A stretch of DNA of 64,000 bases from an uncultured bacterium (GCA_963980225.1 CAXBYW010000001.1:35301-99300); one strand, 5' to 3'; positions 4,654-36,494 are shown, counted from the stretch's first letter. The notes: a model not told the origin generated them from the sequence alone. A program made the numbers and translations.

Positions 4654-4731
4654 ACATCCAGCTTATCACAAAATATTATTTGTCAAAACAAACAACTTCC
4701 CTCAAGCTTTATTTTAGTACAATAAGCATAC

Positions 4732-8048: not shown

Positions 8049-8062
8049 AAAACACCTATAAT
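8035..8062 (+). promoter_or_regulatory. Near-consensus sigma70-type promoter (TTGACA-N16-TATAAT)
   Basis: TTGACA at 8035-8040 lies inside the last codons of GT39 paralog 3. TATAAT is at 8057-8062, giving a predicted TSS near 8069. It sits upstream of the 60-aa ORF, which has its own GGAGG Shine-Dalgarno site. Confidence 0.55.
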
Positions 8063-8113
8063 ACGGGATACACCTTAAAAAGTTAAACTATAGAAATCTT
8101 AGAGGAGGTTTAA

Positions 8114-8296
8114 ATGCGCAAGTTCTTGCAGACATCTTTTGGCGAGTTCCTTATGCTTGTTCTATTTATTGCGCTCGCAAGTATTTTGATGTATGTGTGT
8201 AATGCTCCAACATCTTTAAATATCACATTCGTCATCGTTTTTTCAGTTTGTGGGGCAATAGCCTTCTTCATGACTCATACAAAACCTAAAGGCTAA
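8114..8296 (+). CDS. Small hydrophobic protein, 60 aa, two predicted TM helices
   Basis: MRKFLQTSFGEFLMLVLFIALASILMYVCNAPTSLNITFVIVFSVCGAIAFFMTHTKPKG. GGAGG Shine-Dalgarno at 8104-8108 with a 5-nt spacer. Dedicated promoter upstream and intrinsic terminator downstream. Confidence 0.6.
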   Translation: MRKFLQTSFGEFLMLVLFIALASILMYVCNAPTSLNITFVIVFSVCGAIAFFMTHTKPKG

Positions 8297-8322
8297 ACCA
8301 ACTCCACAATCTTCTTCTTCAC

Positions 8323-8353
8323 AGCTCTCGCTTATAATAGCGAGAGCTTTTTT
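8323..8353 (+). terminator. Rho-independent terminator
   Basis: Perfect 9-bp stem AGCTCTCGC / GCGAGAGCT with an 8-nt loop TTATAATA, followed by TTTTTT. It sits immediately 3' of the 60-aa ORF and abuts the ATG at 8354. Confidence 0.75.
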
Positions 8354-16741: not shown

Positions 16742-16771
16742 CCCCCACAGATATCCTGTGGGGGTTTTTTT
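16742..16771 (+). terminator. Rho-independent terminator
   Basis: 9-bp GC-rich stem CCCCCACAG / CTGTGGGGG, loop ATATC, then TTTTTTT. Confidence 0.75.
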
Positions 16772-16799
16772 ATTAAAAAAAATATACAATACCCATATC

Positions 16800-17456
16800 A
16801 TGACATATCTAATTATTCCTACTTTTAACGAAGGTAGTCGCTTAACCAAGACTTTAAAGGAAGTTAAAAAACATATAAACGAAAAAAATATAGTTGTAGT
16901 TGATGATGGTTCAAGTGTTCCTGAAAGTTTACCCAAAGACTCTAAAGCTACTTTAATTCGCCACCAGATAAACCTGGGTAAGGGTATGGCCATGAAAACA
17001 GGCGCAGACTTTGCTTTTGGAAAAGGTGCTAAAGCAGTTATCTTCATAGACGCAGACCTCCAACATGATCCCAAGCATTTACCTAAATTTAAAAAATTAC
17101 TTAGAAACAATGACTTGGTCTTTGCATCAAGAGTGCCCAGCCTTAAGGCACCTCTAGTTCGCTTGCTGGGAAACAAGTTTGCCTCCATATACATAAATGT
17201 CCTTTTTGGGGTATATATCTCGGACATCTTGTCTGGTTACCGAGCTTTAAACAAAAAAGCCTACAACCTACTTAAGTGGACATCACCTCGTTATGGTGTA
17301 GAGACAGAAATTGTTGCCAGGTTAGGGAAACACACAGACAAGCTAAAATGGGTAGAATTCCCCATAGAGACAATTTATATAAATAAGTACAAGGGTGTTA
17401 CAATCATAGATGCAATTAAAATTTTACAAAAATCAATATGGTGGAAGCTTTCTTAG
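16800..17456 (+). CDS. DPM1/GtrB-like polyprenol-phosphate sugar synthase (GT2), no TM segment
   Basis: LIIPTFNEGSRL…VVVDDGSSV…GKGMAMKTGADFAFGKGAKAVIFIDADLQHDP. The start was moved to the ATG at 16800 because the 16758 start would overlap the terminator. TACAAT at 16785-16790. The antisense ORF 16718..17227 is judged spurious. Confidence 0.7.
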   Translation: MTYLIIPTFNEGSRLTKTLKEVKKHINEKNIVVVDDGSSVPESLPKDSKATLIRHQINLGKGMAMKTGADFAFGKGAKAVIFIDADLQHDPKHLPKFKKLLRNNDLVFASRVPSLKAPLVRLLGNKFASIYINVLFGVYISDILSGYRALNKKAYNLLKWTSPRYGVETEIVARLGKHTDKLKWVEFPIETIYINKYKGVTIIDAIKILQKSIWWKLS

Positions 17457-17782
17457 GTATTCAAATAATCTCAATTTCTTTTGCTGGATTTATGCTTTAC
17501 ATAACTTTTTTACACAGCAAGAGAGGTAGTCTAAATAAGATAGAGTTTTATTCATGGGTTTTTCTATGGCTAGCTTTTATTTACTTTGCTCTTTTCCCCA
17601 AAGTACTAGACCCAATTTTGGCTCAACTTTTTGTTGCTCGTACAATGGATCTTCTGATGATTGCTGCCTTTATGATTTTGGCTTATCTTGGATTTCAAAA
17701 TTATATTGAAATAAAAAATTTACAAAAACAAATTAGAAGAATGGTCAGTCAAAAAGCTATCAAAAAAGCCAGTAAAAAATGA
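17438..17782 (+). CDS. Small 3-TM membrane protein with charged C-terminal tail (DUF2304-like GT2 partner)
   Basis: 114 aa with three hydrophobic helices, then NYIEIKNLQKQIRRMVSQKAIKKASKK. Overlaps the GT2 by 19 nt and the downstream ferredoxin by ATGA. Confidence 0.45.
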   Translation: MVEAFLGIQIISISFAGFMLYITFLHSKRGSLNKIEFYSWVFLWLAFIYFALFPKVLDPILAQLFVARTMDLLMIAAFMILAYLGFQNYIEIKNLQKQIRRMVSQKAIKKASKK

Positions 17783-17973: not shown

Positions 17974-18728
17974 AGTTATCAATAATCACTCTTTCCTTTA
18001 ATCAAGCAGAGTTTTTAGAGCAAACCATCAAGTCAGTTGTCTCCCAAAACTATAAAAATATTGAGTACTTGATTTTTGACGGTGGTTCAACAGATGGGTC
18101 TGTAGAGATAATAAAAAAATACGCCAAAAAGTACCCCAAAATAATTAAATGGCAATCAAAAAAAGATAAAGGTCAAGTAGATGCCTTAAATAAAGCTCTA
18201 AAAATAGTAACAGGGGATGTTATTGCCTATATAAACTCAGATGACTATTATTTACCAGGTGTGTTTCAAAAAGTGGTTAAAACCTTCAAGAAAAATCCTA
18301 AGACAGAATGGTTAGTGGGTAATTGTCAAGTTACCGAGTCAAGATTGAAGTGGACATTTACTATTAAACATTTAATTCCAATTCATCAGGCAAAGTTTTG
18401 GTTGAATTTATTTAATTGGATAAACCAACCGGCTGTTTTTTTAAGAAAAAGTTTGTTTGATCAAGTGGGATTATTCAACCAAAAATATCATTATGCTTTT
18501 GATTACGATTATTGGCTTAGGTGTTCTAAAATGTCTCTGCCCGTTCGTTTAAAGCAGGACTTAGCAGTCTTTAGAGTACATCCAAATTCAAAGGGTTCTA
18601 GAGGTTATGATAAACAGTTTATAGAAGACTACCAAATTCATGTAGATAATAATAATAAAATAATCTGGAGAGCCTTACATTGGATATTATGGAAAATAAC
18701 CATGATAACTTATTTCTTTCTTAAATAA
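17970..18728 (+). CDS. GT2 glycosyltransferase
   Basis: LSIITLSFNQAEFLEQTIKSVVSQNY…FDGGSTDGS…INSDDYY. Confidence 0.7.
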   Translation: MKLSIITLSFNQAEFLEQTIKSVVSQNYKNIEYLIFDGGSTDGSVEIIKKYAKKYPKIIKWQSKKDKGQVDALNKALKIVTGDVIAYINSDDYYLPGVFQKVVKTFKKNPKTEWLVGNCQVTESRLKWTFTIKHLIPIHQAKFWLNLFNWINQPAVFLRKSLFDQVGLFNQKYHYAFDYDYWLRCSKMSLPVRLKQDLAVFRVHPNSKGSRGYDKQFIEDYQIHVDNNNKIIWRALHWILWKITMITYFFLK

Positions 18729-18805
18729 GTATAGTCTAGATTTTCATCAGTAATTATAATTTTTTGTGGCTACGAACCAGCAAATTATTCAGTATAATGC
18801 ACAAT

Positions 18806-19564
18806 ATGTCGAAAAGCATGAATGAAGGATTACTTGAAAAATTTAATAAAGTAGAACAGATCCATTGGTGGTGGGAAGGAAGAAAAGAAATCTTGAAGCA
18901 ATTTATTGGTAAATCAAGACCTAAGAAAATTCTAGACGTCGGGTGTGGTACAGGAGAAACACTTTCATTTCTCCAAGATACCTATCCAAACACTCAACTT
19001 TTCGGCATCGATTCCTCAAATAAAGCAATAAGTTTTTCAAAAAAGAGAGGTCATAAAAATATCTTTAAAGCGAGCGCTTTAAATCTTCCATTTGATGATA
19101 ATTATTTTGACATTGTTCTTTTTCTTGATGTCCTTGAGCACATAGGAAATGATGCAAAGGCAATAAGTGAAGCAAAAAGGGTCTTGAAAAAAAATGGAAG
19201 AATAATTTGTACAAATCCAGCCTTAAAATTTATTTGGTCAGAACACGATTCAAACCAAGGACATAAAAGAAGATATTCAAAAAAAGATGTAGTCAATCTA
19301 GCAAAAAACTCAAATTTAAAAGTCGAGAAAACAGCTTACTTTAATTTTCTTCTGAGCCCAGCAATAATCTTAATAAGATTGTTAAGTAGAGTACGTTTCT
19401 TCAAGCATTTTACGAGCTATGATAATAGTTTGAATTATGATATTGCCAACATGGGTGTGATCAACTCTATTTTAAAATTCTTATTTACCAAAGAGATACA
19501 AGCCCTAAAGTACATAAGATATCCTTTTGGTATATCAATATCTGCAGTTTTTAGAAAAGCATGA
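18806..19564 (+). CDS. Class I SAM-dependent methyltransferase
   Basis: ILDVGCGTGETLSFL (motif I) and DIVLFLDVLEHI. The start was chosen at the ATG at 18806 because TATAAT at 18793-18798 lies inside the longer ORF that starts at 18764. Confidence 0.7.
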   Translation: MSKSMNEGLLEKFNKVEQIHWWWEGRKEILKQFIGKSRPKKILDVGCGTGETLSFLQDTYPNTQLFGIDSSNKAISFSKKRGHKNIFKASALNLPFDDNYFDIVLFLDVLEHIGNDAKAISEAKRVLKKNGRIICTNPALKFIWSEHDSNQGHKRRYSKKDVVNLAKNSNLKVEKTAYFNFLLSPAIILIRLLSRVRFFKHFTSYDNSLNYDIANMGVINSILKFLFTKEIQALKYIRYPFGISISAVFRKA

Positions 19565-20322
19565 CATCCATAAAATCCAAAAATGAATTGACGGAAAAAG
19601 AACATTTCAATAAAATGGCTTCTTCATACGACACTAACTACGGATACTCGGACTCTTTTACTGAATATAAGCTTAATAAAAAAACAACAAGTTTCGTCAA
19701 CCTTATTAAGCCATACATAAAAAATAAGAAAAACCTCAAGATATTAGAAGTTGGTTGTGGGACAGGAGAGTACACAATGAGAATCGCAAAACATTTTCCA
19801 AAAACTAAAATAATAGGACTTGATATCTCAAATAACATTCTTAAGGTCGCACGCAAAAAATGTAAGACACAAAAAAATGTATCATTTACCGCACAAAGCG
19901 CCTATAAAACAAAATTGAAAAACGACTCAGTAGATGTTGTCTATGGATTTTATGCTCTACACCATTTAGATATTAAAAAATTTAAACAAGAAGCACTTAG
20001 AATTTTAAAACCAAACGGAGTAGTATATTTTTATGAACCTAACATATTAAATCCGGTTGTATTTTTGATTAAATCAAATAAATTTCTTAAAAGTAAGGTT
20101 GGGGATTCTCCAGATGAATGGGCTATTAACCCAATTGGCATCAAGAAAGAGTTCACAGGGTTTAACAAAGTAGATATTTTGATGTCAGAGTATGTTTGGC
20201 CGCTAAAATTCATACCATCAGAAGTTCTCATTTTAATTGACAAGACCATAAGTCCAATGAATAAAATTCCAGTAATAAAATATCTGGGTGGTTCTGTACA
20301 AATATTTTTTCAAAAAAAATGA
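19561..20322 (+). CDS. Class I SAM-dependent methyltransferase
   Basis: ILEVGCGTGEYTMRIAKHFP and VVYGFYALHHL. ATGA-coupled. Confidence 0.7.
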   Translation: MTSIKSKNELTEKEHFNKMASSYDTNYGYSDSFTEYKLNKKTTSFVNLIKPYIKNKKNLKILEVGCGTGEYTMRIAKHFPKTKIIGLDISNNILKVARKKCKTQKNVSFTAQSAYKTKLKNDSVDVVYGFYALHHLDIKKFKQEALRILKPNGVVYFYEPNILNPVVFLIKSNKFLKSKVGDSPDEWAINPIGIKKEFTGFNKVDILMSEYVWPLKFIPSEVLILIDKTISPMNKIPVIKYLGGSVQIFFQKK

Positions 20323-21926
20323 AACAATTCATTAAAAAAAATATTTTATTAATTGGTATTATTACCGCGGTATATTTTTTATATTCTTCAGTGTTCTTAA
20401 AACCTCACAAAATAAATAGTTTTTCTTTAGTTGATGATGGTCAAGTTTTGGTTCAAAGCTGGTCATATCTAAAAGACTGTGTTCAAAAAAAAGATTGTTC
20501 AGTTTTTGTTGATCAAACTTTCGAATTTGGTGTAAGCAGATTCAGACCTGCTTATTGGTTAATAAATAACACAATCTATAGTTTCTTCGGAGATAATGCT
20601 CAGGCCCATCATATTTTTAGGGTCTTTGCCACGGGGTATGCCACTGTTTTTCTTCTTGCACTTATACTCAGGGATTTGGGCATAAACTCGCTATTTACGT
20701 TGTTGGGTACTATTCTATTTTTTACAAATTATTCATTCACTGAAAATGTTATTCGCCTAGGAACAAACGAACCGTACCAAGTAATATTTCTCGCTATTTT
20801 TTCCTACCTTTACTTAAACAGAAAAAAATCACAGAAGAAAAGTTCAAAATCATTTATTTTCTTAACACTTCTGCTTGTGTGGACAATTTTAATAAAAGAG
20901 TCAAACATTGCCATCATACCAACACTACTATTGTTTGAATGGTATTTTTCTGGCAACAAAATACCCAAAAAAACAATGATGATGTTTTCCATACCAGCAA
21001 TAATCTTGTTATTGGGAATAGTTTATTCAAAAACACTTTTGACACAAATATCACTAGACATACCAATATACGCAAGTAACTACATGATCTCCCCATTATC
21101 TATGCTCCGAAATCTCATGTTCCATACTAAGCTTTTACTAAATTCTCTATCTCCTTTCTTGAAATTATCAATCGTTATCATCTTCGCAATCTTCATGCTA
21201 AGAAAAAAGATAAAAAATATTTTAAAGGCTCCCAAACTGTCCTACTGGTTGATTTTCACAATATCTTTTATTGGAGTTTTGCTACCATGGAGGTATGTGC
21301 TTGATAGGTATCAATTAATAGTGGTGTTTGGGTTAATTATTCTTATCATGGCTTTATTTCAAGAGTTCTACAAATATCTAAAAACAAGACTAGTTAAAAA
21401 AAACAGCTTGTTACAGAAACACATATTCAATGCGGTATCGATAATAGTGGTGGCGAATCTATTTTTTCATGGATTCCCTCTAAATCTTGCCAAAACAATC
21501 AATTATAGTAACTGGTTCTATGGTTTTAATAAATACGAGGCGGATCAAATGCAGGTTATTGCCAAATACGCAAACCAAGAGCTATATGTAAATGGTAAAG
21601 ACAATATTAATAATTGGGAGTTTCTATATGAAATACCGATTCATTTAAAATATTTATTTGGCCAAGATACAGATGTCCAAAGGATTACTGATCAAATACC
21701 ACAAAATGGTTATCTATTTTCTAAGACACCCTTTGATTCTCAGGTGGAAATCAGTGAGTTAGCTGACAAAGGTTACGAGCCAATAGACCAAAAAACATAC
21801 TCAGTTGATCGAATAGATCCGATAAAATTCAAAGAAAATTTTGTCATGAAACCGATTAGGACAGTGATAGATCCTCCACTGCACCCTGACAAGCATGTAT
21901 ATTACTGGGAGATACGAAAGCTATGA
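20319..21926 (+). CDS. Polytopic membrane protein, candidate GT-C glycosyltransferase
   Basis: 535 aa with about 11 TM helices and a soluble C-terminal domain of about 150 aa, an architecture like the ArnT/PMT-type enzymes. No confident motif match. Confidence 0.35.
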   Translation: MKQFIKKNILLIGIITAVYFLYSSVFLKPHKINSFSLVDDGQVLVQSWSYLKDCVQKKDCSVFVDQTFEFGVSRFRPAYWLINNTIYSFFGDNAQAHHIFRVFATGYATVFLLALILRDLGINSLFTLLGTILFFTNYSFTENVIRLGTNEPYQVIFLAIFSYLYLNRKKSQKKSSKSFIFLTLLLVWTILIKESNIAIIPTLLLFEWYFSGNKIPKKTMMMFSIPAIILLLGIVYSKTLLTQISLDIPIYASNYMISPLSMLRNLMFHTKLLLNSLSPFLKLSIVIIFAIFMLRKKIKNILKAPKLSYWLIFTISFIGVLLPWRYVLDRYQLIVVFGLIILIMALFQEFYKYLKTRLVKKNSLLQKHIFNAVSIIVVANLFFHGFPLNLAKTINYSNWFYGFNKYEADQMQVIAKYANQELYVNGKDNINNWEFLYEIPIHLKYLFGQDTDVQRITDQIPQNGYLFSKTPFDSQVEISELADKGYEPIDQKTYSVDRIDPIKFKENFVMKPIRTVIDPPLHPDKHVYYWEIRKL

Positions 21927-22954
21927 ACATAATTAACCGACTAGAGAAAATAATTAAGCAGCCCATGACGCTGCTTGTCACTTGGGCCGCTTTCCTTTTG
22001 TCTCCGTTACTAACGGTCCTAAGAATTGAGTACATCAAGGGCAACATTAACTTAAACTTCAGTATTCATGGAATGTCTACAGTACTATTATATCTACCAC
22101 TCTTTCTCTCCTTTTTAGCATTTGTAATTTTTACCTCTTGGTACGATGATTTTTTAAAGTCTAAATTAAGAAAAGCCCAATACGTGGTAATTTTTTTGAT
22201 AACTATTGCCAGTTTGATGTTCATTCTGTCATCTGCCAAACTTATCAACCTTGAAAAAACGTTTTATCCAAACTACGTATATGAGCATTACGGCATCATT
22301 CTTACTCACTTGAGCATAATGTCATTCATTGCAGGCTATCAAATAATTACTTCCTTAATTTTAATAATCAACAAGTTGAGCAACCTAACCTCAAGTAATA
22401 CCAGCAAGTCTATCTATGACAAAAATATTGGTCTTTTTAAAAACAGATATATAATAAAACCTTATGTTAGCGGTACTTTCCGCGGAAAAACATCATTCTT
22501 TTTATGTGTAGTAGGGTTTCTAACATTAATAATGGCAGCCTTCTACCCATTCATTAACTGGTCAAAATTGGTGGTAGAATCTCATGAAAGTTATGAGGCC
22601 AAAGTCGGTTCTAGGCACAAGTATCTTGATGCGCTTGCAACAGATACTCCAGAAGATTCCACAATCATTCATCCTCCACAAGGAGACAATTGGCCCGCAA
22701 TAGGCAACCAACCGTTAATCCGCTTCTTCCTTTTCCCAAGACCATTAGTGAGTGGTGCCTTATTTGTTGATCAAGAGTTTGCAGGGCAATTTGAATCAGC
22801 ATACTTTACTAAGATAATTGACAAAGTAAGTTGGCCAATCATTGACCTCACTAGAAAAGTTATAGTTTTTGATGAAACAACAGAGATATTCTACAAGTCA
22901 TTAAGTGTCAGCTCCATGAGTAATGGGGTCGAGATTAATAAAATTACTTTTTGA
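21923..22954 (+). CDS. Polytopic membrane protein, unknown function
   Basis: 343 aa with multiple TM helices. ATGA-coupled on both sides. Confidence 0.4.
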   Translation: MNIINRLEKIIKQPMTLLVTWAAFLLSPLLTVLRIEYIKGNINLNFSIHGMSTVLLYLPLFLSFLAFVIFTSWYDDFLKSKLRKAQYVVIFLITIASLMFILSSAKLINLEKTFYPNYVYEHYGIILTHLSIMSFIAGYQIITSLILIINKLSNLTSSNTSKSIYDKNIGLFKNRYIIKPYVSGTFRGKTSFFLCVVGFLTLIMAAFYPFINWSKLVVESHESYEAKVGSRHKYLDALATDTPEDSTIIHPPQGDNWPAIGNQPLIRFFLFPRPLVSGALFVDQEFAGQFESAYFTKIIDKVSWPIIDLTRKVIVFDETTEIFYKSLSVSSMSNGVEINKITF

Positions 22955-24249
22955 ACATGCTTGAATTTATACTCTCAACACTAATGATTATCACCATGAT
23001 CGCGGCGAAAATGTTCTTTATTTTCAATGAAGGTAGTTTTTCAAACACCGGACTTGAGGTGGTAAATTTGATAGGTTTGCTTCTGCTAATGTCGGTTGGG
23101 GTTATCGCATACATCAAATTACGCAAATCGAAAAAACACATAAAAACAAAGAAAAATCTTAGCATCACAACAATATTTTTGTTTGTCATCACGGGGCTGG
23201 TGGTGGCTTTCTCTTTGTACCTAAACTCCATCAAGATATCACTTCATTGGGATGCAATTGCACTATACGAAGCCAGAGCAAAATTCCTTGCAATAGGGAT
23301 GAAGTTTTCAGACATGTCAAATCTCTCAAGTTTTGATAATCTAAACAAGCATTATTATTTACTATATCCTCCTTTCACTTCTATAATCCACTTCCTTTGG
23401 GGTAAGCTTCTTGCTATACCGATTAGCATATATTACTCAATAACCTTAGCAACGTTACTTTTTTTGTCATTTTCAGTTTCAAGATATTCGTTAGGCACAA
23501 AAGGGGCTGCATTATTGGTCGCGCTTGTTGCTGCAAATGGGAGTATTTTTAACGTTGCAATAAAAGAATATACAAATCTTCCCTACGATCTATATCTAGT
23601 TGGTGGAATCTTATTATTACTATTGCACTTAAAAACTCACAAGTTATGGAGCTTTGCCTATGGTACTCTACTTCTTTCTACTTCTACGTGGATAAGACAT
23701 CTGGAGCCAATGTGGTTAGCTATTGTCATTGCCTATTCCATAACAATACTCTTCAAGGACAAATTCAAGCACAAAATAATTTACATATTAGTTCTTACCG
23801 GTTACTGTGTGTCAGAGTATTTTATATGGAATCACTTTGCCATAGCTGTTGGTGGTCGTCCAGAAGCAATCCCGACCTCGATATTGGGGTATGTGGAATC
23901 GGTTCTAGGCATATTTACAGGGGCACCTCTCGTTGTGGCTAAGTTGATGGTCGAGTCATGGTCTATTCCCTTTGTCATACACTCCACGGCTCTTCTTGCT
24001 GCCATTCTAAATTGGAAACACACCATAAAAGATAAGGCGATCCTATTTCTCAGTTTAATCCTGGCCATAAGCATCACATTCTACTTTGCGGGACTATATA
24101 TCTGGTCTTTTCAAGTAGATTGGTGGAACATTATCGTCAAATCACTCGATAGGTCATCTGGTTTCTTAATTCCAGTTTCTGCATACATAATCATTAAAAC
24201 GCTTTTCTTCTCAAATCTCTACTTCAAAAAAACTACTTTGAAGAAGTAA
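22951..24249 (+). CDS. Polytopic membrane protein, candidate GT-C glycosyltransferase
   Basis: 432 aa. HWDAIALYEARAKFLAIGMKF…YPPFTS resembles the GT-C first-loop D-x3-Y-x3-A … (H/Y)PP motif. Confidence 0.4.
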   Translation: MNMLEFILSTLMIITMIAAKMFFIFNEGSFSNTGLEVVNLIGLLLLMSVGVIAYIKLRKSKKHIKTKKNLSITTIFLFVITGLVVAFSLYLNSIKISLHWDAIALYEARAKFLAIGMKFSDMSNLSSFDNLNKHYYLLYPPFTSIIHFLWGKLLAIPISIYYSITLATLLFLSFSVSRYSLGTKGAALLVALVAANGSIFNVAIKEYTNLPYDLYLVGGILLLLLHLKTHKLWSFAYGTLLLSTSTWIRHLEPMWLAIVIAYSITILFKDKFKHKIIYILVLTGYCVSEYFIWNHFAIAVGGRPEAIPTSILGYVESVLGIFTGAPLVVAKLMVESWSIPFVIHSTALLAAILNWKHTIKDKAILFLSLILAISITFYFAGLYIWSFQVDWWNIIVKSLDRSSGFLIPVSAYIIIKTLFFSNLYFKKTTLKK

Positions 24250-24922
24250 TTTCCTTAAACAAATATTTTATTATCACTATTCCAAAAGGAATTGTCTTAA
24301 AATGGGTCTCTCCAGAAATGCGTGGGTTTTCTTTGGTAGGAAACTCTATCCTTTTGATATTATTTTTATATACCTTCACTACCCCATTAATATCGATTGT
24401 GGGACCATCAGTGAATGAAGGGTTAGTTTTCTTGAAAGTCTCTAAAGTCATTCCACGAAAACCATGAAGAACATCCCAAATCACATTTCCTTTTTTTCGC
24501 CACAATAAAGAAAGTAATCCTCCCAGACTTAGTACAAGCCACTTACGAAGTTTAATGAAACTATCATCATCTTCATTCTTTCCCCCCTTCATCATTCTGC
24601 TTGCAACAATAAACTGATAACCTTTTTCAAAAAATTTATGAAACTTTAATGTATCTGAAACTGGTACTGTTCCTTTCGGGTGAAAAAATATAATAGCATC
24701 CGACTTACACTTTTCTACTCCTAATATGTGTGCAGCATTAAGGCCTTTTTTAGATTGAATATGAACAGGAATTTTATTTTTTCTTAAGTACTCAATGGTG
24801 CCATCTTTACTTCCACCATCAATCGCAAAGACTTCATTGAAAGCATTTTTTTTAATCAAGGGGACATCATGTTTACATCCATCAAGCTCATTCCATGTAA
24901 TAAGACAAAGCGCAATTTTCAT
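24233..24922 (-). CDS. GT2 glycosyltransferase
   Basis: MKIALCLITWNELDG…AIDGGSKDGT. AAGGAG about 11 nt upstream of the ATG on the minus strand. Confidence 0.65.
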   Translation of the reverse strand: MKIALCLITWNELDGCKHDVPLIKKNAFNEVFAIDGGSKDGTIEYLRKNKIPVHIQSKKGLNAAHILGVEKCKSDAIIFFHPKGTVPVSDTLKFHKFFEKGYQFIVASRMMKGGKNEDDDSFIKLRKWLVLSLGGLLSLLWRKKGNVIWDVLHGFRGMTLETFKKTNPSFTDGPTIDINGVVKVYKNNIKRIEFPTKENPRISGETHFKTIPFGIVIIKYLFKEITSSK

Positions 24923-24928
24923 AATAAG

Positions 24929-27900
24929 TTAATCTCCTTTTCTAATAAATGCTTCTACAATTTCTATTCTACTAGATGGAGAAAGAATAACCTCATCAAT
25001 TTCTTGTTTCATCCAACAGTATTGGGCGCTAATCCTTACGAGATACTCTGTAGCCGTATCAGAAGGCACTAGATCAATCAGGATATTAGATTCTGGAGTT
25101 TTACAGTAGTTAATCTCAAGCTTGCCAATGGCGTCTGATTTTAATTTGAGATGAACATAATTACCTGTGGTCTTATCAAGACCATTCTCAACCAAGAGTC
25201 TTGCAGAACTACTTGCATTTATCACTGTTCGTTCATCAATAAGTGCGGCAAGTATTTTTGTATTTTCACTTGCATTCTTTTCATCAAACGTACCCCACAC
25301 ATATGGCAACTTCTTAAAATCAAACTCTTGGCTCAAAATAGTTTGAGGAAGTAGCCCATTGGCATTTAAAGCAGAGAATCTTTCTGATTTCCATAATAAA
25401 TATCCGTCTACATATCCAAGTGGAGTATAGTTGTCATAAATAAATTCATAAATTTTGTAACTTCTTATTTCATTTGGAACACCATCAATGCTATTAGCGT
25501 GTGTAATCGGTTGCCTAAAGACAACAATAGGGATTTCATTTTTATCATATGCTTTTTTAATTTTATCGAGTGAAAAATCTTGGATAACATCTGACGTCCA
25601 ATATGCACTAGGTATAAAATAATTTACGAACTTTTTATCCGTCACGACATACAACATCGGCGAGCTCGTCATGTCTAAAAACGTCTGTTCACCCTCTAAA
25701 TTATCAACTAAAAAACTAGCTATTTCTTTATATTGTGAATCATTAACTCTCACCCTACTTTCTTTGTTCTCCCAGTTATATAGATTAACAAGTCTAGTGT
25801 CTTTTAGCAATGCTGAACTTGAAGGGGAGAAAAGCTGATAGGCAAACAAAGCAACTGAAAAGAAAATCATTGCCCCTTCTTTTGAAAAAGACTTAACATA
25901 AAAAGGAATAGCCATCCCTAGGAAAATAAATAAATAAGGATTAAACCCAAGTACGAACAAGGACTGTCGTTGAACTGAACGTAAGGACATAACTAAAGAA
26001 AAAATCGCCAAGAAAAGAAGTAGATATTGGATTGATGTAAACCGGTGAAGGTTTTTTTTCAGAGCACTAACGGTGAAGAATAAGACATAAAATACACCAA
26101 TCAGTGGAAGTAAAAAATACTGGAAAATAGCCACTGGTGAATACGAGGCGGCAATGTTTATTAATCCTTGTGCTTGAGCTTGAAACTTCACAAATTCAAA
26201 CGCTTGTCCAATTAATCCAGAAAGAGACTCATTTCCTATATAGCTAGCAAAAGCTCCAAGTGAGGCGGTGAATATTCCCACGAGAAACAAAGATGATAAG
26301 ACTTGCTTAAAATTTATTACTGATACACGCTTGTCAATAAGTTTAAAAAGATTTTGAACCATGAGTATAAAAATGGCAGAAACAAAACAAGCAATTCCAA
26401 AATCGACTCTCCATGCGGTGAAAAATACACAGGCAAACCAGTAGGCAACCAACCGACGATAACTTGGTTTTTTAACGAGCCAAATAAACGAAAGGGCCAT
26501 GGCAAACGAAGACAGATAATATGTGTTTGCAAGAGACGTACTATGTCCATAAATAAAACGCGTACCTCCAAAAACACCCAGTAAAGGAAGGAAGAGTAAA
26601 GATAGTGTGGCAAAAAACGAATTAGTAAGCGAGTAAGTGACAAAATACAAAAAAACAATCTCAAAGATTTTAATGCCCCATTCCCACAACCAAGGTTCAA
26701 ACGCTTTGTAACCATTTACTACTGAGTATAAAAACTGACTAACTAAACTGGAAATGCCATGGGTGGGATAAATATTAACAAAGGGTATGCTTCCATGCGA
26801 AAAAAGTTGTTGTATTGTGATCAAGTCTTCTCCTTGGTGGAACATATCAAGATGGATGGGAATATTGATAAAGTTTTTGTATTCGTTGAATACCACAACC
26901 GAAACAATTAGTAGTGGAAAATACACGTACGAGGCAATAGGAAGTGGTCTATCTTTCCATGTGCGTTTTGTTCCTAAGAAAAACATCACTAAAGATAAAA
27001 AACTCAAAGTAGACACCGTAAAGATAGATACACCTCTAGCAGAAAAATTATATAAACCAGATAGTGAGAACTGGATTTCGTTTGAAATAGGTATTGAAAC
27101 TGGAATTAAAAGTAAGGGAATACTCGCAAACAATATACTGTTTAGGGTTGATTTTCGTTTGGCAAGCACCACCCCCTTTGTCAGTAAATAACATCCGATC
27201 CAAAAAAATACTAAAAAGATAAAATGTAAGGGAAAATATTCATATGTAAACATAAAACTACCTTTCACAAGTAACCATCTTGTGAAAAAAGGCACAAACG
27301 GAAGAATCAAACTAAGAACAATTAAGTTGTAATTATTTAATAATTTAGAAAGTATCCGGTTAGACGAATAAAACATCTTGATTCCAAGCATCACATATGT
27401 GATCGAGAACAAATATAAAAGCATGTGAAGAATGTTTACATATATCATCGCACCATTTAGATAGTGAAGAACAAACACAATTATGGAGACCAAGGAGATA
27501 GAAAAGAGCATACGCCGTTCATTTGCTAGTAACCGAGGCCCAACATACCTGGAAAGAACAATGTCAGTCTTAAAAAAGACGTAGTACAAAAAAGAAAAAA
27601 TCAAAATGAATAACGCAATTATCGAAACATACGACCAGGATCTCAATGAAATGTCTACTCCTTCAAGCACAGCGATACCAATCGTTCTTTCTGTAAAGTT
27701 TTTTAGGCTGTAATTGATGTTTTCAAATTTATATTGTATGGCCAACAAACTAAAGAGAGCACTAGATAGAGGGATCCATAAACCAGAAGCTACTTTACTA
27801 TCTCCAGAGTTTTTGGGTGGTAGTTTAAGTCCAAGGTAGGTATAAGCAGTAAAGGCAATTAAAAAAGACGAGAGTATTAATATAATCCCATTAACATCCA

Positions 27901-28003
27901 GGACCTTACTTAAGACAACTAAGCTAACAAAAAAATAACTTAGCGAAACAATAATTTTATCAATAAAGGAAACATGTGTACCTGTCTTTGTTTTAGTATG
28001 CAT
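24929..28003 (-). CDS. Giant polytopic membrane protein (1024 aa), candidate GT-C/YfhO-like glycosyltransferase
   Basis: More than 25 hydrophobic segments and a C-terminal soluble domain of about 250 aa. It sits between a GT2 and a TM-less DPM1-like GT2, with 6-nt and 27-nt intergenic gaps, all on the same strand. Confidence 0.4.
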   Translation of the reverse strand: MHTKTKTGTHVSFIDKIIVSLSYFFVSLVVLSKVLDVNGIILILSSFLIAFTAYTYLGLKLPPKNSGDSKVASGLWIPLSSALFSLLAIQYKFENINYSLKNFTERTIGIAVLEGVDISLRSWSYVSIIALFILIFSFLYYVFFKTDIVLSRYVGPRLLANERRMLFSISLVSIIVFVLHYLNGAMIYVNILHMLLYLFSITYVMLGIKMFYSSNRILSKLLNNYNLIVLSLILPFVPFFTRWLLVKGSFMFTYEYFPLHFIFLVFFWIGCYLLTKGVVLAKRKSTLNSILFASIPLLLIPVSIPISNEIQFSLSGLYNFSARGVSIFTVSTLSFLSLVMFFLGTKRTWKDRPLPIASYVYFPLLIVSVVVFNEYKNFINIPIHLDMFHQGEDLITIQQLFSHGSIPFVNIYPTHGISSLVSQFLYSVVNGYKAFEPWLWEWGIKIFEIVFLYFVTYSLTNSFFATLSLLFLPLLGVFGGTRFIYGHSTSLANTYYLSSFAMALSFIWLVKKPSYRRLVAYWFACVFFTAWRVDFGIACFVSAIFILMVQNLFKLIDKRVSVINFKQVLSSLFLVGIFTASLGAFASYIGNESLSGLIGQAFEFVKFQAQAQGLINIAASYSPVAIFQYFLLPLIGVFYVLFFTVSALKKNLHRFTSIQYLLLFLAIFSLVMSLRSVQRQSLFVLGFNPYLFIFLGMAIPFYVKSFSKEGAMIFFSVALFAYQLFSPSSSALLKDTRLVNLYNWENKESRVRVNDSQYKEIASFLVDNLEGEQTFLDMTSSPMLYVVTDKKFVNYFIPSAYWTSDVIQDFSLDKIKKAYDKNEIPIVVFRQPITHANSIDGVPNEIRSYKIYEFIYDNYTPLGYVDGYLLWKSERFSALNANGLLPQTILSQEFDFKKLPYVWGTFDEKNASENTKILAALIDERTVINASSSARLLVENGLDKTTGNYVHLKLKSDAIGKLEINYCKTPESNILIDLVPSDTATEYLVRISAQYCWMKQEIDEVILSPSSRIEIVEAFIRKGD

Positions 28004-28030
28004 CTATCATCTAGTAGCCCGGGCAATAAG

Positions 28031-28843
28031 TTATGTTCTAAGTATTTTACCCTTTTTGCTTCTAAGAATCATTAAACTTGTGAGGGCTTTGATTACAGTT
28101 TTAGCAGGAAGCGTTACTGGTTCTTCCATTCTGTCTGTCCCCCAAACTATTGGCAATAACTCAAATGAATGTTTTCTCCATATCACCAAGGTTCTCATTT
28201 CGGTTTGATAAAAATGACCAGGCCCTCTTTCAACAGAGATCCAGTTTTCAATCGGATATGTCTTAAACACATCTTTTAGTACAGAGGAATTAAAGGCTTC
28301 ATATCCGCTTGTCATATCATCAACCCATCCCGTTTCAAGACCAAGGGTGATGTTTGCTAAGAATGTTCCCGTTTGACTGATCAACTTCCTTTGAAGAGGG
28401 TACTGATTGATCCCTCCTTTATCAGAAAACCTTGAAGCAAAAACAGCAGAGTCTTCATCTTTACTCATTCTTTCAATAAACTCCGGGATATATCCAGGAT
28501 CATGGGCTCCATTTGCGTCCATCTCAATAACCATATCTGCACCATTAGAAACAGCATGATTAAGACCATGAAGGTAAGCATAGGCTAATCCTCTAGGGTC
28601 AGGAGCCCCTAAGTCTATCAAGTCCACTCGATCATCTTGGGTCGTAACATCGTCTACAAATTCCATGAAATCTGGTGTTGCATTGCTTGCACAAACATAG
28701 ATCTTTGGAACATAACCATCTGGAATCTCCTCAAGTATTCGCTCAAGAAGGCGCCCCTCCCCAAGAGATTTAGTCTCATTTTTTGCGGGCATTACGACAG
28801 CAACTCTTTTTTCCGTTCTCATTCTATGAATAATATCAGGCAA
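28031..28843 (-). CDS. DPM1/GtrB-like polyprenol-phosphate sugar synthase (GT2), no TM segment
   Basis: VAVVMPAKNE…MVIEMDANGAHDPGYIPEFI…VFASRF. Confidence 0.65.
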   Translation of the reverse strand: MPDIIHRMRTEKRVAVVMPAKNETKSLGEGRLLERILEEIPDGYVPKIYVCASNATPDFMEFVDDVTTQDDRVDLIDLGAPDPRGLAYAYLHGLNHAVSNGADMVIEMDANGAHDPGYIPEFIERMSKDEDSAVFASRFSDKGGINQYPLQRKLISQTGTFLANITLGLETGWVDDMTSGYEAFNSSVLKDVFKTYPIENWISVERGPGHFYQTEMRTLVIWRKHSFELLPIVWGTDRMEEPVTLPAKTVIKALTSLMILRSKKGKILRT

Positions 28844-28900: not shown

Positions 28901-30394
28901 ATGATTACTCAGCACCTGACCTTCTCAGATTCAGCTAAGTTTGCCCAGTCCGCTACAAGTCTTGTTAAGGGTCAAGGGTTGCAAATTTCCCATTCATTCT
29001 TTAATCCTGAGTTAATCACTTCTTTTTCTTCAGGTACCTGGTTTCCAGCTAACTTTCTTCCACTACCTTCTTGGATCCTGTCTTTTATTTTTAGGTTTTT
29101 TCCAGCAACAGATACAACAATAGCTTTCACTGGACTATTATTTTTCATACTTTCCACACTATTAATCTTCTCTATTGGTAAAAAACTTCATTCAGTTAAA
29201 GCTGGTTTAATTTCTGCTCTTTTGTTTATCTCAAGTATGTTTTTTCAAGAATATGCCCTTAACTTTGCTAGCGAGATAGTCTTTATTCCTCTTATTCTTT
29301 TGTTTATTTACTTGATGCTGTTGCCTAAAAAACTTAAACTGATGTCCCTTATACCTTTGCTGCTTATGTTTATTACTCGACAACAAGCCAGTGTTTTTCT
29401 GGGTAGTTTTCTACTTGCTTTCCTGGCTATTTTTATTACTGGCAAAGCCAACAAAAAAAAGAAAGGTCTGGTCTTGTTAGCACTAGCCCTCTCTGGTCTC
29501 TTATTTGTTATTATCAGCAATTTTACTGCTAACTCCATCTTCTCTCCCGCTAAAGTATCCATTAGTTTCAATATCGCCGCTGGAAGTAATTTTGGTTCAT
29601 ACATTAGAGGAGGGGAGTATCAGGTCTTAAGTCTGCCGGGACTAGCCAGTAAGATTTTCTACAACTTCTACAACTTTGTTAAGGCCCCTGAAAGACTAGC
29701 CTTTCCTCCAATCTTCCTTCTCTTTATATACTCGCTCTTTATTAAGAGTAAGAAAAAAGAACTAAATTACTTTAAGCTCTTTACGGCTGTTTCTTTCTTC
29801 TTCTTTCTCTTGGCTGCTTCTGCCACCCTACCTAATGCCCGTTATGTTCATCCCATCATCCCACTGATAATGATTCTTGCTGGTATCGGCTTAGTTAAGT
29901 TAGCCGAGAGTCTTCCGTCTAAATTACAAAAGCTTGTCTTAGTTGTCATGGTTCTCTTTATTCTTTTTCCCACCTTCAAACATTTCACTTTTGATGCTCG
30001 CTCTCGTACTCAACAGTTCAATGTTGACAAACCTATTGCTGGTAAGAAGATAGCCGGTGTTATGGCAGAAAATATTCCTAAAGGACAGCTGACCATTACC
30101 AATCTAGACGCCTGGGCCGCTTGGTATTACGACCTAACCACCATGTGGTTCCCTGTTGAGGTAGACATGTTAGAAGGATATCAAGATAAAGTGGACTACA
30201 TTGTTATTACCAACTACAAAGAACACGATGGTGATTTTGCTTTAGGAGAATGGGAAGAGGTTGTTTACAAACCAGAAGATATTCAAAATCAATTTTTACG
30301 ACAAAATTACCAGATCTTGAAAAAATTTGAAATTACTCCAGAATCTAATTACGAAAACAAACAGTTTATTGGTACTATTCTAAAAAAGAAATAG
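28901..30394 (+). CDS. Polytopic membrane protein, GT-C-like (degenerate ArnT/PMT motif)
   Basis: 497 aa. FSDSAKFAQSATSLVKGQGL (D-S-x2-F-x3-A-x2-L-x2-G instead of DE…), followed by multiple TM helices and a C-terminal soluble domain. TATAAT at 28887-28892, 8 nt upstream of the ATG. Confidence 0.4.
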   Translation: MITQHLTFSDSAKFAQSATSLVKGQGLQISHSFFNPELITSFSSGTWFPANFLPLPSWILSFIFRFFPATDTTIAFTGLLFFILSTLLIFSIGKKLHSVKAGLISALLFISSMFFQEYALNFASEIVFIPLILLFIYLMLLPKKLKLMSLIPLLLMFITRQQASVFLGSFLLAFLAIFITGKANKKKKGLVLLALALSGLLFVIISNFTANSIFSPAKVSISFNIAAGSNFGSYIRGGEYQVLSLPGLASKIFYNFYNFVKAPERLAFPPIFLLFIYSLFIKSKKKELNYFKLFTAVSFFFFLLAASATLPNARYVHPIIPLIMILAGIGLVKLAESLPSKLQKLVLVVMVLFILFPTFKHFTFDARSRTQQFNVDKPIAGKKIAGVMAENIPKGQLTITNLDAWAAWYYDLTTMWFPVEVDMLEGYQDKVDYIVITNYKEHDGDFALGEWEEVVYKPEDIQNQFLRQNYQILKKFEITPESNYENKQFIGTILKKK

Positions 30395-35363: not shown

Positions 35364-35921
35364 GTGAAGAAAACACTAACATTTATCGTTTTATTCTCAG
35401 TTTTGGTGGGTATGATCTTGTGGCTTCCATGGTACGTATTTGAAGACCAAGAATTAGTTCAGATTACCCATGAACTTGAGTATTTACCTACCAATGACGT
35501 CCAGATCGTGCTTCAAGCAGACGATATCTCATCTTTTGAGTTGTCTCTTGATGAGTTTAAAAACAGACAGTTTAAAGGTATCAGCAGCCTTGAGGTAAAG
35601 AGATCAAACAAGACAGGTCAAACCTCTACGGCAGAGGTCACCATGTACGCAAGTGAGTCGGGTACAACCTTTCATGTCCAACTAGAAAACATAGAAATGT
35701 CCAGGTGGTCGCTCTGGGGAGTCAACATGGGAAGCTACTTCATTGTTGATCAGACACTGGACGATGGTGTACTCACCTTGAGTCTCGAGCGCGATATGGG
35801 GCTCTTACTTCTCTTTATGATCGGGGGACTAGGCCTTGGGCTAATTCTTATCAGTACCCTTATAAATAGGATCTGGCCAGACGAGAAGAATGATCTGTCG
35901 CGCCCAACTCAACTATTTTAA
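35364..35921 (+). CDS. Hypothetical protein with N- and C-terminal TM anchors, paralog A
   Basis: 185 aa, GTG start. AGGAG Shine-Dalgarno at 35351-35355. TM at both ends with a central domain of about 120 aa. Shares HELEYLPTNDV, SFEL…DEFK, FHVQLENIE and DGVLTLSL blocks with the downstream gene. Confidence 0.55.
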   Translation: MKKTLTFIVLFSVLVGMILWLPWYVFEDQELVQITHELEYLPTNDVQIVLQADDISSFELSLDEFKNRQFKGISSLEVKRSNKTGQTSTAEVTMYASESGTTFHVQLENIEMSRWSLWGVNMGSYFIVDQTLDDGVLTLSLERDMGLLLLFMIGGLGLGLILISTLINRIWPDEKNDLSRPTQLF

Positions 35922-35945: not shown

Positions 35946-36494
35946 ATGAAGAAAAAAATCATAGCATATGTCTTTGCCTACATACTTGTAATGTCTGTCA
36001 TAACTTACTTTGAATACAGTAGATACAACACACTTGGACCAATTGAGGTTTCACACCAATTGGAATATCTACCTACTGACGATGTGTCGCTAACAAGTAA
36101 GGTGGGTGGTGCAGAGTCTTTTGAACTACCCTTTGATCAGTTTAAAAAACTATCTTTTGAGGGGGCAACATACATTGTTTTTTCTCAAAATCTAGACACG
36201 GTCAAAGTCAACGCCACGGCCTTAAGCTCTGGTGTCATCTTCCATACAGTGATTGACGAGATAGAAATACCAACAGTTGTAATGGGGAAAATATTCCTTA
36301 CAAGATATGAAATCGTTGATAAAAAAATCACTGATGGTACCATCATCTTAAGCCTGACCCCGGACGATAGTGAGTTTTTAATGTTAAACATTGTGGTCTG
36401 GGTTGTTACAGGCCTATCCGCATGCTTGTTTGGCATGATATACACAGTACGACATATGATCAAACGAGGCACTCTCACTTGGGAAGAGACTTAA
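35946..36494 (+). CDS. Hypothetical protein with N- and C-terminal TM anchors, paralog B
   Basis: 182 aa. GAGGAG Shine-Dalgarno at 35934-35939. HQLEYLPTDDV, SFELPFDQFK, FHTVIDEIE, DGTIILSL. Confidence 0.55.
   Translation: MKKKIIAYVFAYILVMSVITYFEYSRYNTLGPIEVSHQLEYLPTDDVSLTSKVGGAESFELPFDQFKKLSFEGATYIVFSQNLDTVKVNATALSSGVIFHTVIDEIEIPTVVMGKIFLTRYEIVDKKITDGTIILSLTPDDSEFLMLNIVVWVVTGLSACLFGMIYTVRHMIKRGTLTWEET

Follow-up and report, generated by a model that had tools for sequence, protein, structure and literature searches.

The locus considered here raises the question of whether a 1024-aa membrane protein of no named family, encoded between two genes for glycosyltransferases of family GT2, is itself a membrane glycosyltransferase of the GT-C type, and whether it draws its sugar donor from the enzymes encoded beside it. 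The three genes lie on the minus strand of a 64,000-nt stretch of DNA from an uncultured bacterium (GCA_963980225.1 CAXBYW010000001.1:35301-99300; hereafter the window, in which positions are counted from the first letter), and all of the evidence presented is computational. The names of homologues (Microgenomates group, Amesbacteria) suggest that the host belongs to the Candidate Phyla Radiation (CPR)/Patescibacteria. Our analysis indicates that the 1024-aa protein is very probably a new, unusually large GT-C-type membrane glycosyltransferase, and we assign a probability of about 0.72 to the reading that the block is an extracytoplasmic, lipid-donor-dependent glycosylation module. A preliminary description of the window had listed a minus-strand block of three genes in this order, and open reading frames (ORFs) were indeed found as follows:

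24233-24922, minus strand: GT2_229, 229 aa, a DPM1/AglJ-like GT2 without transmembrane (TM) helices; candidate polyprenyl-phosphate-sugar synthase
24929-28003, minus strand: the large protein, 1024 aa, member of a large unannotated family of polytopic proteins of ~950-1370 aa
28031-28843, minus strand: GT2_270, 270 aa, TTG start; a second TM-less GT2, DPM1/PpgS-like

As the gaps between these genes are just 6 nt (GT2_229 and the large gene) and 27 nt (the large gene and GT2_270), the trio is operon-like; scans for promoters and terminators returned counts at or below chance. All three ORFs are considered genuine genes because the large protein has homologues at E=0 and both GT2_229 and GT2_270 exceed the Pfam threshold for GT2.

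Homology of the large protein to GT-C enzymes

The large protein has no match in Pfam or NCBIfam and is labelled 'hypothetical protein' in public sources, and no Pfam model was matched by 47 diverse relatives, even at E<=0.05. YfhO (PF09586) and DUF2723, two of the families that the preliminary description had proposed for comparison, are accordingly not represented among the Pfam matches of the large protein and these relatives. The curated threshold of PMT_2 (PF13231) was reached by none of them either, so the large protein is a relative and not a member of PMT_2. A search of PDB sequences with the family profile gave no match.

The link to characterized enzymes runs through k3, a stand-alone family of ~560 aa encoded beside GT2_229-type genes and represented here by a 39-sequence profile. 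Comparison of the large family with k3 by hhalign gave a probability of 93.6% (E 2e-7) over 435 columns, with residues 404-880 of the large protein aligned to residues 65-568 of k3, so that k3 is covered almost completely, its soluble domain at the C-terminus included; reversed controls reached P 0.003-0.006. When the two modules of the large protein were compared separately, the C-module alone matched k3 at P 1.2e-6 (probability 91-94% across both comparisons), and the N-module showed no similarity to k3. Pfam PMT_2 is matched by eight of the 39 k3 members (best 6.5e-6), one k3 member is named 'glycosyltransferase family 39 protein' by NCBI, and hhalign aligned k3 with PMT_2 at a probability of 81% (1.3e-5; reversed 0.14-0.18). 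On these sequence grounds k3 is a divergent GT-C of the PMT_2/GT39 type.

The direct signal is weaker. The large family matched the family of the neighbouring PMT_2 protein at P 2.7e-4 (reversed 0.18-0.19), which we regard as marginal because one reversed control elsewhere reached 1.6e-4. With a 5-sequence profile of the tandem PMT_2 paralogues of the window, hhalign gave a non-significant P of 0.07 in the same register, and a profile of the PMT_2 protein at 28901-30394 found no match among PDB sequences. Register closure was then assessed with five polytopic families as intermediates (k0, k1, k2/m432, k3 and m535). Mapping from the large family through the intermediate to PMT_2 agreed with the direct mapping in all five cases, with 124-181 columns falling within +-4, as against 0/5 with PMT_2 reversed, 2/5 with the large family reversed and 0/5 for the N-module.

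Structure comparison leads to the same class of enzymes. A membrane-only model (pTM 0.85) submitted to Foldseek returned AftA (8IF8, probability 0.82) and PglB (6GXC, probability 0.41) at the top; AftA, the best structural match of the membrane domain, is a weak one (TM-score ~0.3). AftD, the third comparison that had been proposed, has no sequence match in the PDB search and is absent from the Foldseek matches of the membrane domain, though its structure is solved (PMC11127046). The full-length model gave weak matches of its C-terminal beta-sandwich to carbohydrate-binding modules (CBMs) and nothing else. Taken together, the polytopic core is homologous and structurally similar to GT-C enzymes, and the earlier proposal of a candidate GT-C of unnamed family is upheld by the chain from k3 to PMT_2/GT39, by AftA and PglB as top structural matches and by the GT-C-like loop described below.

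Domain architecture and extent of the family

An AlphaFold (AF2) model of the full-length protein (pLDDT 82, pTM 0.81), read together with hydropathy, places ~21 TM helices up to residue 725, fewer than the '>25 hydrophobic helices' first counted. This is, to our knowledge, the most helix-rich GT-C-like architecture. A soluble C-terminal domain had been expected and is present, at ~290-300 aa (726-1024) and not ~250 aa, and it comprises two domains, one alpha/beta and one a beta-sandwich. The protein divides as follows, conservation having been computed over 96 sequences:

27797-28003, minus strand: residues 1-69, N-terminal extension; lineage-specific, two TM helices, outside the family core
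26948-27796, minus strand: residues 70-352, N-module; ~9 TM helices, in every full-length member
25799-26947, minus strand: residues 353-735, GT-C-like core; TM11 (355-374) as 'TM1', then extracytoplasmic loop 1 (EL1) and 10 further TM helices
26681-26881, minus strand: residues 375-441, EL1; 67-aa loop, putatively catalytic, with interfacial helices 387-403 and 418-430
25349-25798, minus strand: residues 736-885, alpha/beta domain; predicted extracytoplasmic, densest conservation
24932-25348, minus strand: residues 886-1024, beta-sandwich; CBM-like, putative acceptor-glycan binding

The two helices of the N-terminal extension (13-34 and 39-58) have low pLDDT, and the family profile match starts at residue 70. 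Within the N-module R106 (97%) and E309 (99%) are near-invariant and D117 and R121 are also conserved, all in loops predicted to lie outside. Profile comparison of the N-module with the C-module and with GT-C families brought out no similarity (P>=0.03), and a test for internal duplication of the two modules was negative (P 0.17). The proposal that two membrane domains are joined in this protein holds in that two membrane modules exist. The fusion is not recent, since every full-length member matches the family profile from end to end, which makes the whole two-module architecture ancestral.

EL1 carries the motif [D/E]386-x-F-[H/E]-x-[G/A]-[E/N]...P407...[D/E]410...H415, in which position 386 is acidic in 89% of sequences, P407 is present in 100% and H415 in 90%. 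H415 aligns with a near-invariant His of k3; D386 aligns with the invariant D51 of k3 in a low-confidence extension only. The EL1 motif of PMT and ArnT is of the DE type, and that of the large protein reads 'DxFHxGE...P...H'. In the pattern known as GT-C_A, the catalytic acid lies in EL1 after TM1 (PMC11127046). As modelled, EL1 of the large protein would fit this pattern, with D386 as the putative catalytic acid.

The alpha/beta domain contains conserved R750, T774, Y785, Q808, D840, R847, E853 (100%), P861 (100%) and W871, and it lies inside the 435-column match to k3, where it corresponds to the k3 C-terminal domain; taken alone its signal is weak (P 0.048). For the beta-sandwich, Foldseek matches in the PDB were CBM29, CBM6, CBM16 and the CBM of AlgX, with a probability of ~1.0 and E 0.03-0.1, and superposition on these CBMs gave TM-scores of 0.44-0.50 (normalised on the CBM) and a root-mean-square deviation of 3.2 A over ~112 columns. 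W903, D907, R990 and W997 are its conserved residues. Application of the positive-inside rule to the predicted helices suggests an N-in, C-out topology, in which the C-terminal domain and every conserved polar residue would face outward. The possibility that the protein is a pseudogene or decayed enzyme, raised by Q680 and N410, was rejected, as Q680 is common to intact close relatives and the profile match is full-length.

With PMT_2/GT39-GT83 GT-Cs (ArnT, protein O-mannosyltransferases), to whose membrane core it is homologous via k3, the large protein shares a soluble domain after the last TM helix and a location beside genes for synthases of the ArnC/DPM1 class. In the model 'TM1' also leads, as in those enzymes, into a loop, predicted to be extracytoplasmic, that has interfacial helices and a conserved acid. 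The large protein differs from these enzymes in its size, about twice theirs, in the extra ~9-TM N-module and in the CBM-like end. Emb and AftD also combine a GT-C core with carbohydrate-binding modules, and a C-terminal CBM occurs in GT136 (PMC11127046); the large protein has no sequence similarity to AftA, AftD or EmbA/B/C, and its domain order differs from theirs.

The extent of the family was determined by exhaustive profile search, a word-indexed search having found just 20 relatives. This revealed 2003 cluster representatives (50% identity) at E<=1e-3 and 859 at <=1e-30, mostly 950-1370 aa long, with all full-length members aligning to the profile end to end. Among species-representative genomes the family is sparse, yet very widely spread over phyla: its bacterial hosts include Chloroflexia, Paenibacillus, Bacteroidota, Lachnospiraceae and Oscillospiraceae of the gut, Spirochaetota, Myxococcota, Gammaproteobacteria, Dojkabacteria and candidate phyla, and its archaeal hosts Methanothrix and Undinarchaeota, with DPANN archaea also named. 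Tandem duplicates were seen in metagenome-assembled genomes of candidate division FCPU426 (L006/L013, 3754-10509) and of a Lachnospiraceae (L051, 6340-12253). No description of the family was found in the literature searched. What is new here is the family itself, which is modelled in neither Pfam nor NCBIfam and has ~19 TM helices in its core and a conserved extra N-module; the kind of system, a GT-C plus a lipid-sugar synthase, is already known.

Flanking synthases and gene neighbourhoods

GT2_229 matched Pfam GT2 at 2e-7 and, over its full length, AglJ as best NCBIfam model (1e-14); the corresponding values for GT2_270 were 9e-13 and, for PpgS, 5e-5. As both NCBIfam matches fall below the equivalog cutoffs, neither protein is taken to be orthologous to AglJ or PpgS. 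The sole PDB sequence match of each is the P. furiosus Dol-P-Man synthase 5MLZ (2.6e-8 for GT2_270, 2.4e-3 for GT2_229). Both are thus placed by their matches in the DPM1-like class of polyprenyl-phosphate sugar synthases. One TM-less DPM1-like synthase had been described in this block; the description holds for the 270-aa protein, and it applies to the 229-aa protein as well, hydropathy having detected no hydrophobic helix in either. Small membrane proteins of the DUF2304 family (GacJ/Rv3632) serve as partners to TM-less synthases of this class (10.1101/180810), and no DUF2304 gene is adjacent to GT2_229 or GT2_270, so that neither means of membrane association was found. The sole DUF2304 protein of the window lies apart from the trio:

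16758-17456, plus strand: a third TM-less GT2, 232 aa, overlapping the start of the next gene
17438-17782, plus strand: DUF2304 protein, 114 aa, 3 TM helices, E 1e-18

By analogy with GacI/GacJ (10.1101/180810) or PpgS/Rv3632, this pair is a candidate third donor synthase of the locus.

We next compared gene neighbourhoods, defined as the region within 6 kb of the large gene, in 66 fetched loci (~63 non-redundant). The six closest loci, in which the large proteins share 41-52% identity, are the window (WIN), L001, L063, L064, L065 and L066. A GT2_229 orthologue (53-73% identity) lies directly downstream of the large gene in all six, at a distance of 6-13 nt in WIN, L001, L063, L064 and L065; in L066 a partial orthologue lies 13-19 nt downstream. 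In Paenibacillus and Bacteroidota GT2_229 orthologues of 50-58% identity are again found downstream of the large gene, with one Glf-like gene between, and this identity exceeds that of the large protein itself (30-35%). GT2_270 orthologues were found only in L063 and L064 (56-62% identity), with one weak relative elsewhere in the loci. The position upstream of the large gene is occupied instead by SIS and NTP-transferase genes in L001 and L065, and in L066 the GT2_270 slot holds a gene on the minus strand (2236-3384), divergent from the large gene, for an RGP (reversibly glycosylated polypeptide/UDP-arabinopyranose mutase-like; PF03214), a protein typical of plants and unusual in a bacterium. 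As its contents differ among the six closest loci, the upstream slot behaves as an exchangeable donor-supply cassette. The exact trio was rejected as a conserved unit, GT2_270 orthologues occurring in only two related contigs. Conservation of the trio in relatives, which had been proposed as a check, therefore extends across phyla for the large gene with GT2_229, and GT2_270 is clade-specific.

Beyond the closest loci, a gene for a polyprenyl-phosphate-sugar synthase lies within 6 kb of the large gene in at least 35 of the ~63 non-redundant loci. The GT2s near the family fall into six subfamilies, all of the polyprenyl-phosphate-sugar synthase class, with PgfS/ArnC, PpgS, AglJ and Dol-P-hexose transferase as best matches:

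S1: ~312 aa, two C-terminal TM helices, GtrB architecture; PgfS/ArnC-like
S2: ~268 aa, TM-less; PpgS/AglJ-like
S3: GT2_229 type
S4 and S5: AglJ-like
S6: GT2_270 type

ArnE/F-like pairs occur in eight of the ~63 loci, and Glf-like mutases recur. This recurrence of DPM1/GtrB/ArnC/PpgS-class synthases, with ArnE/F-like flippases nearby, supports the earlier proposal that the large protein works with an adjacent polyprenyl-phosphate-sugar synthase.

A fuller module is present in 13-14 loci (among them L002, L017, L035, L041, L043, L046, L050-L053, L056 and L059; about +-6 kb) from Lachnospiraceae, Paenibacillus, Flavobacterium, Fibrobacter and Dojkabacteria. It consists of a DAO-type FAD oxidoreductase, S1, an SDR-like protein, a psicose/ketogluconate-epimerase-like TIM barrel, S2 and the large gene, often with two ArnE/F-like half-EamA proteins in addition. 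Analogy suggests that gut Firmicutes and other phyla carry out a redox epimerisation of a sugar, possibly lipid-linked, since the DAO and SDR genes recall the logic of DprE1/DprE2, which epimerises a lipid-linked sugar; the oxidoreductase is presumably not of the DprE1 family. No description of a DAO/S1/SDR/TIM/S2 module was found in the literature searched.

The association was also examined in reverse. The sample was 42 metagenome loci that contain a GT2_229-type gene preceded by 2.5 kb or more of sequence. Only 10 of them carry a gene of the large family, and nearly all others have a Glf-like gene and a polytopic protein of 560-680 aa (k0, k1 or k3) in the equivalent position, often together with an ArnE/F-like pair. 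As k0, k1 and k3 fill the place of the large gene, the synthase-mutase cassette appears to pair with interchangeable GT-C-like transferases, the large family among them, and this lends support to the functional reading. GT2_229-type synthases as exclusive partners of the large family were rejected on the same count. Members of k0 (~575 aa, 18 members) and k1 (~670 aa, 8 members) lie beside such GT2_229-type/Glf-like cassettes in L074-L095 and others. They have no Pfam match and give weak hhalign signals in GT-C register, and on sequence they are likely further undescribed GT-C families. In seven Bacteroidota loci (L023, L028, L029, L032, L036, L037 and L045) the large gene is followed by genes for a GT9 (heptosyltransferase-like), a methyltransferase and a 362-aa unannotated membrane protein.

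The trio itself lies in a ~55-kb glycosylation island that makes up most of the window and encodes at least eight PMT_2 GT-Cs, a PIG-V-like protein, many GT2 and GT4 proteins, Wzx-like and Wzy_C-like proteins, a ManC-like nucleotidyltransferase and an initiating Bac_transf. Its other relevant features are:

2607-11616, plus strand: five tandem paralogous PMT_2 GT-C genes (545, 548, 557, 547 and 540 aa), some also matching PMT or STT3 models
19561-24249, plus strand: convergent block, a methyltransferase (253 aa) and, at 20319-24249, unannotated polytopic membrane proteins of 535, 343 and 432 aa
28901-30394, plus strand: PMT_2-type GT-C, 497 aa (Pfam PMT_2 4.8e-8), divergent from the trio
35364-35921 and 35946-36494, plus strand: adjacent paralogues of 182-185 aa, each with an N- and a C-terminal hydrophobic helix

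Further PMT_2 genes at 28901, 38475 and 47161 bring the number to at least eight, unusually dense for one locus. The PMT_2 gene at 28901-30394 starts 57 nt upstream of the trio and keeps this position in L001, L063, L065 and L066; in its product and the ~490-500-aa homologues a conserved 'LTFSDSAKFA' motif stands at the very start, and these proteins appear to be devoid of the usual GT-C TM1, the first ~70 residues containing no hydrophobic helix. The convergent block, whose last gene overlaps the end of the trio by 17 nt, has syntenic orthologues in L063, L064 and L065 (CPR clade). Its 535-aa and 432-aa families show a GT-C-like signal, matching PMT_2 by hhalign at P 2e-4 and 6e-4 (reversed ~0.1) and aligning with the large family in the same register; the 343-aa protein gave no match. 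The 182-185-aa paralogues share a conserved 'H(E/Q)LEYLPT(N/D)DV' stretch and belong to no Pfam family. GC content is 0.31-0.36 over 18001-28000 (methyltransferases, the 535-, 343- and 432-aa proteins, GT2_229 and the large gene) and 0.38-0.41 on both sides. Together with the 50-58% identity of GT2_229 to its Paenibacillus and Bacteroidota orthologues, this hints at horizontal acquisition, although AT-rich codons in genes for membrane proteins could account for part of the drop. No ArnE/F-like, GtrA or Glf homologue was found in the window, nor any small multi-TM ORF besides the DUF2304 gene. No flippase gene is present in the trio or its conserved block, one candidate being the Wzx-like gene at 30411, 2.4 kb off.

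Proposed mechanism, competing explanations and implications

The findings reported above concern the structure of the genes, the family to which the large protein belongs, its homology to PMT_2/GT39-like GT-Cs and the neighbourhood statistics; from these we infer a scheme for the topology, donor, acceptor, catalytic residues and functional coupling of the trio. In the first step, judged by homology, cytoplasmic GT2_229 would load polyprenyl phosphate with a monosaccharide taken from a nucleotide sugar, and GT2_270 may do likewise with the same or a second sugar; that the donor sugar in the window is mannose, from the ManC-like gene at 52875, is a guess. The second step, which is not encoded in the trio, would be the flipping of the polyprenyl-phosphate-sugar to the outer face. 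In distant relatives the ArnE/F-like pair would take this role; for the window the candidates are the Wzx-like gene, a gene in some other part of the genome and, as speculation, the N-module of the large protein. In the third step the core of the large protein (353-735) would bind the lipid-linked donor at the outer leaflet, D386 in EL1, just past 'TM1', would activate the acceptor, and the alpha/beta domain and CBM-like beta-sandwich would hold that acceptor, which most probably is a glycan of the cell surface exported beforehand. The N-module (~9 TM helices), whose R106 and E309 are predicted to lie outside, would be an additional part. The three-component logic ascribed to the block in the preliminary description is therefore retained for the synthase and the GT-C and dropped for the flippase; strictly, the trio holds two components and a spare synthase.

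Several known systems resemble this scheme in part. In the GT136 systems (Citrobacter youngae ORF12; Kelly et al., PNAS 2024, PMC11127046), a cytoplasmic lipid-sugar synthase and a flippase act with a GT-C bearing a C-terminal CBM, side-chain sugars are added after export, and auxiliary sugar-modifying enzymes diversify the donor. The component logic is the same, relatives of the large protein being encoded beside Glf-like or RGP-like mutases and oxidoreductase/epimerase sets, and the fuller module recalls the epimerase-assisted three-component systems of that study. GT136 itself has 11 TM helices and ~650 aa, with a donor derived from phosphoribosyl pyrophosphate (PRPP) by a UbiA-like synthase and flipped by a MATE flippase (PMC11127046). 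Compared by description, the large protein differs in its N-module, in synthases that are GT2/DPM1-like and in a flippase that, where present, is ArnE/F-like. GtrA/GtrB/GtrC, CsbB-YfhO-GtcA and GacI/J/K/L share with the trio a GT2 polyprenyl-phosphate-hexose synthase and a large polytopic GT-C acting outside the membrane, and the S1 partners, a GT2 domain with two C-terminal TM helices, are GtrB-like. Unlike these systems, the trio has TM-less synthases with no adjacent DUF2304, no GtrA/GtcA homologue and no match of YfhO or GtrC type.

One set of observations is not explained by a donor cassette: the seven Bacteroidota loci with GT9 have no lipid-sugar synthase within 6 kb of the large gene, and their context resembles that of lipopolysaccharide (LPS) core loci.

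Dedicated coupling of the trio in the window is uncertain, as many other GT-Cs share the island. With its PMT_2 GT-Cs, the PIG-V-like protein and two more GT-C-like proteins set against three candidate lipid-sugar synthases, the adjacency could be accidental, the DPM1-like synthases feeding the island's PMT_2 GT-Cs generally while the large protein uses the common pool or another source. The occurrence of GT2_229-type genes without the large gene in about three quarters of the metagenome loci and the confinement of GT2_270 to its clade are consistent with such a pool. However, a GT2_229 orthologue lies 3' of the large gene in every close relative whose downstream flank is complete, the gene order is kept in Paenibacillus and Bacteroidota, which have no PMT_2 arrays, and where the large gene is absent a GT-C-like replacement stands beside the synthase, the pattern expected of a donor cassette with exchangeable transferases. 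We therefore hold accidental adjacency to be doubtful, while giving it appreciable weight.

The scheme could also be right in all but its acceptor, with the large GT-C glycosylating S-layer, pilin or other secreted proteins and its C-terminal domains binding the protein or an attached glycan. The nearest annotated relatives include PMT/GT39-type O-mannosyltransferases, and GT2_229, like several partner synthases, has its best NCBIfam match in AglJ, which takes part in the glycosylation of S-layer glycoproteins. S1 resembles PgfS (NCBIfam 'glycosyltransferase PgfS'), which we take to be part of a streptococcal protein-glycosylation system, and the Paenibacillus alba locus, with a Wzy_C protein of 839 aa, Wzm/Wzt, a methyltransferase-GT and rml genes, presumably resembles S-layer glycan clusters. 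On the other hand, the beta-sandwich is like glycan-binding CBMs, many of the loci belong to the ABC-transporter type of polysaccharide locus or contain GT9 of the LPS-core type, and the data identify no acceptor protein. A protein acceptor seems unlikely to us.

Far less probable is a polymerase or ligase of the Wzy/WaaL/SEDS type using polyprenyl-diphosphate oligosaccharides. The protein is large and polytopic, the near-invariant residues R106, R121, R675, R679, H680 and R750 of its predicted outside loops would suit diphosphate binding, and some distant members lie in Wzm/Wzt ABC-transporter loci, where a ligase is needed. Yet no Wzy_C or other polymerase/ligase Pfam match was found in 47 members, no WaaL, RodA, FtsW or Wzy structure appeared among 48 Foldseek matches, homology leads to PMT_2/GT39-type families, the recurrent neighbours are monophosphate-sugar synthases and ArnE/F-like flippases, and Wzy_C proteins distinct from the large protein are already encoded in both the window and the P. 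alba locus.

That the protein is no enzyme but mainly a flippase or transporter, equipped with a periplasmic binding domain and acting on a polymeric or lipid-linked glycan, is highly improbable. The ~21 TM helices, the N-module without recognisable enzymatic homology and the lack of a separate flippase in the trio would speak for it. Against it, transporter structures, an assignment to which the preliminary description had regarded as decisive against a GT-C, match the membrane domain at noise level (probability <=0.08, TM-score ~0.1), conservation is concentrated in predicted outside loops and the soluble domain and not within the membrane, the C-module is homologous to GT-C enzymes, and relatives with the same N-module keep separate ArnE/F-like genes.

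We return, then, to an extracytoplasmic, lipid-donor-dependent glycosylation module. A broader proposal, which we advance as speculation that will more probably fail than hold, is that the large family, k0, k1 and k3, GT2_229-type synthases, Glf- and RGP-like mutases and ArnE/F-like pairs form an undescribed widespread pathway in which polyprenyl-phosphate-sugar made by a GT2 supplies hexofuranose or other unusual sugars for the extracellular decoration of surface glycans. The N-module would in that case add a new functional unit to a GT-C, whether as a donor-lipid channel or flippase, a synthase docking site or a second active site. If true, the pathway would parallel, for hexoses, the GT136 pentofuranose systems, and the role of the N-module would explain how the CPR version manages with neither a DUF2304 partner nor a flippase as a separate protein.

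A large part of the microbial cell surface is built or decorated by GT-C enzymes; examples are LPS modifications, the side chains of teichoic acid and rhamnan, arabinan, and N- and O-glycoproteins. GT-C families are still being founded singly, GT136 in 2024. Recognition of the present family as a GT-C with a donor-supply cassette turns thousands of 'hypothetical proteins' into testable glycosyltransferases, for which loci are available in the culturable hosts Paenibacillus piri, P. alba and Flavobacterium enshiense, and it raises the structural question of what a conserved extra 9-TM module does in a GT-C. For CPR bacteria, which have very large glycosylation islands and no genetics, the family offers a mechanistic handle on the assembly of surface glycans.

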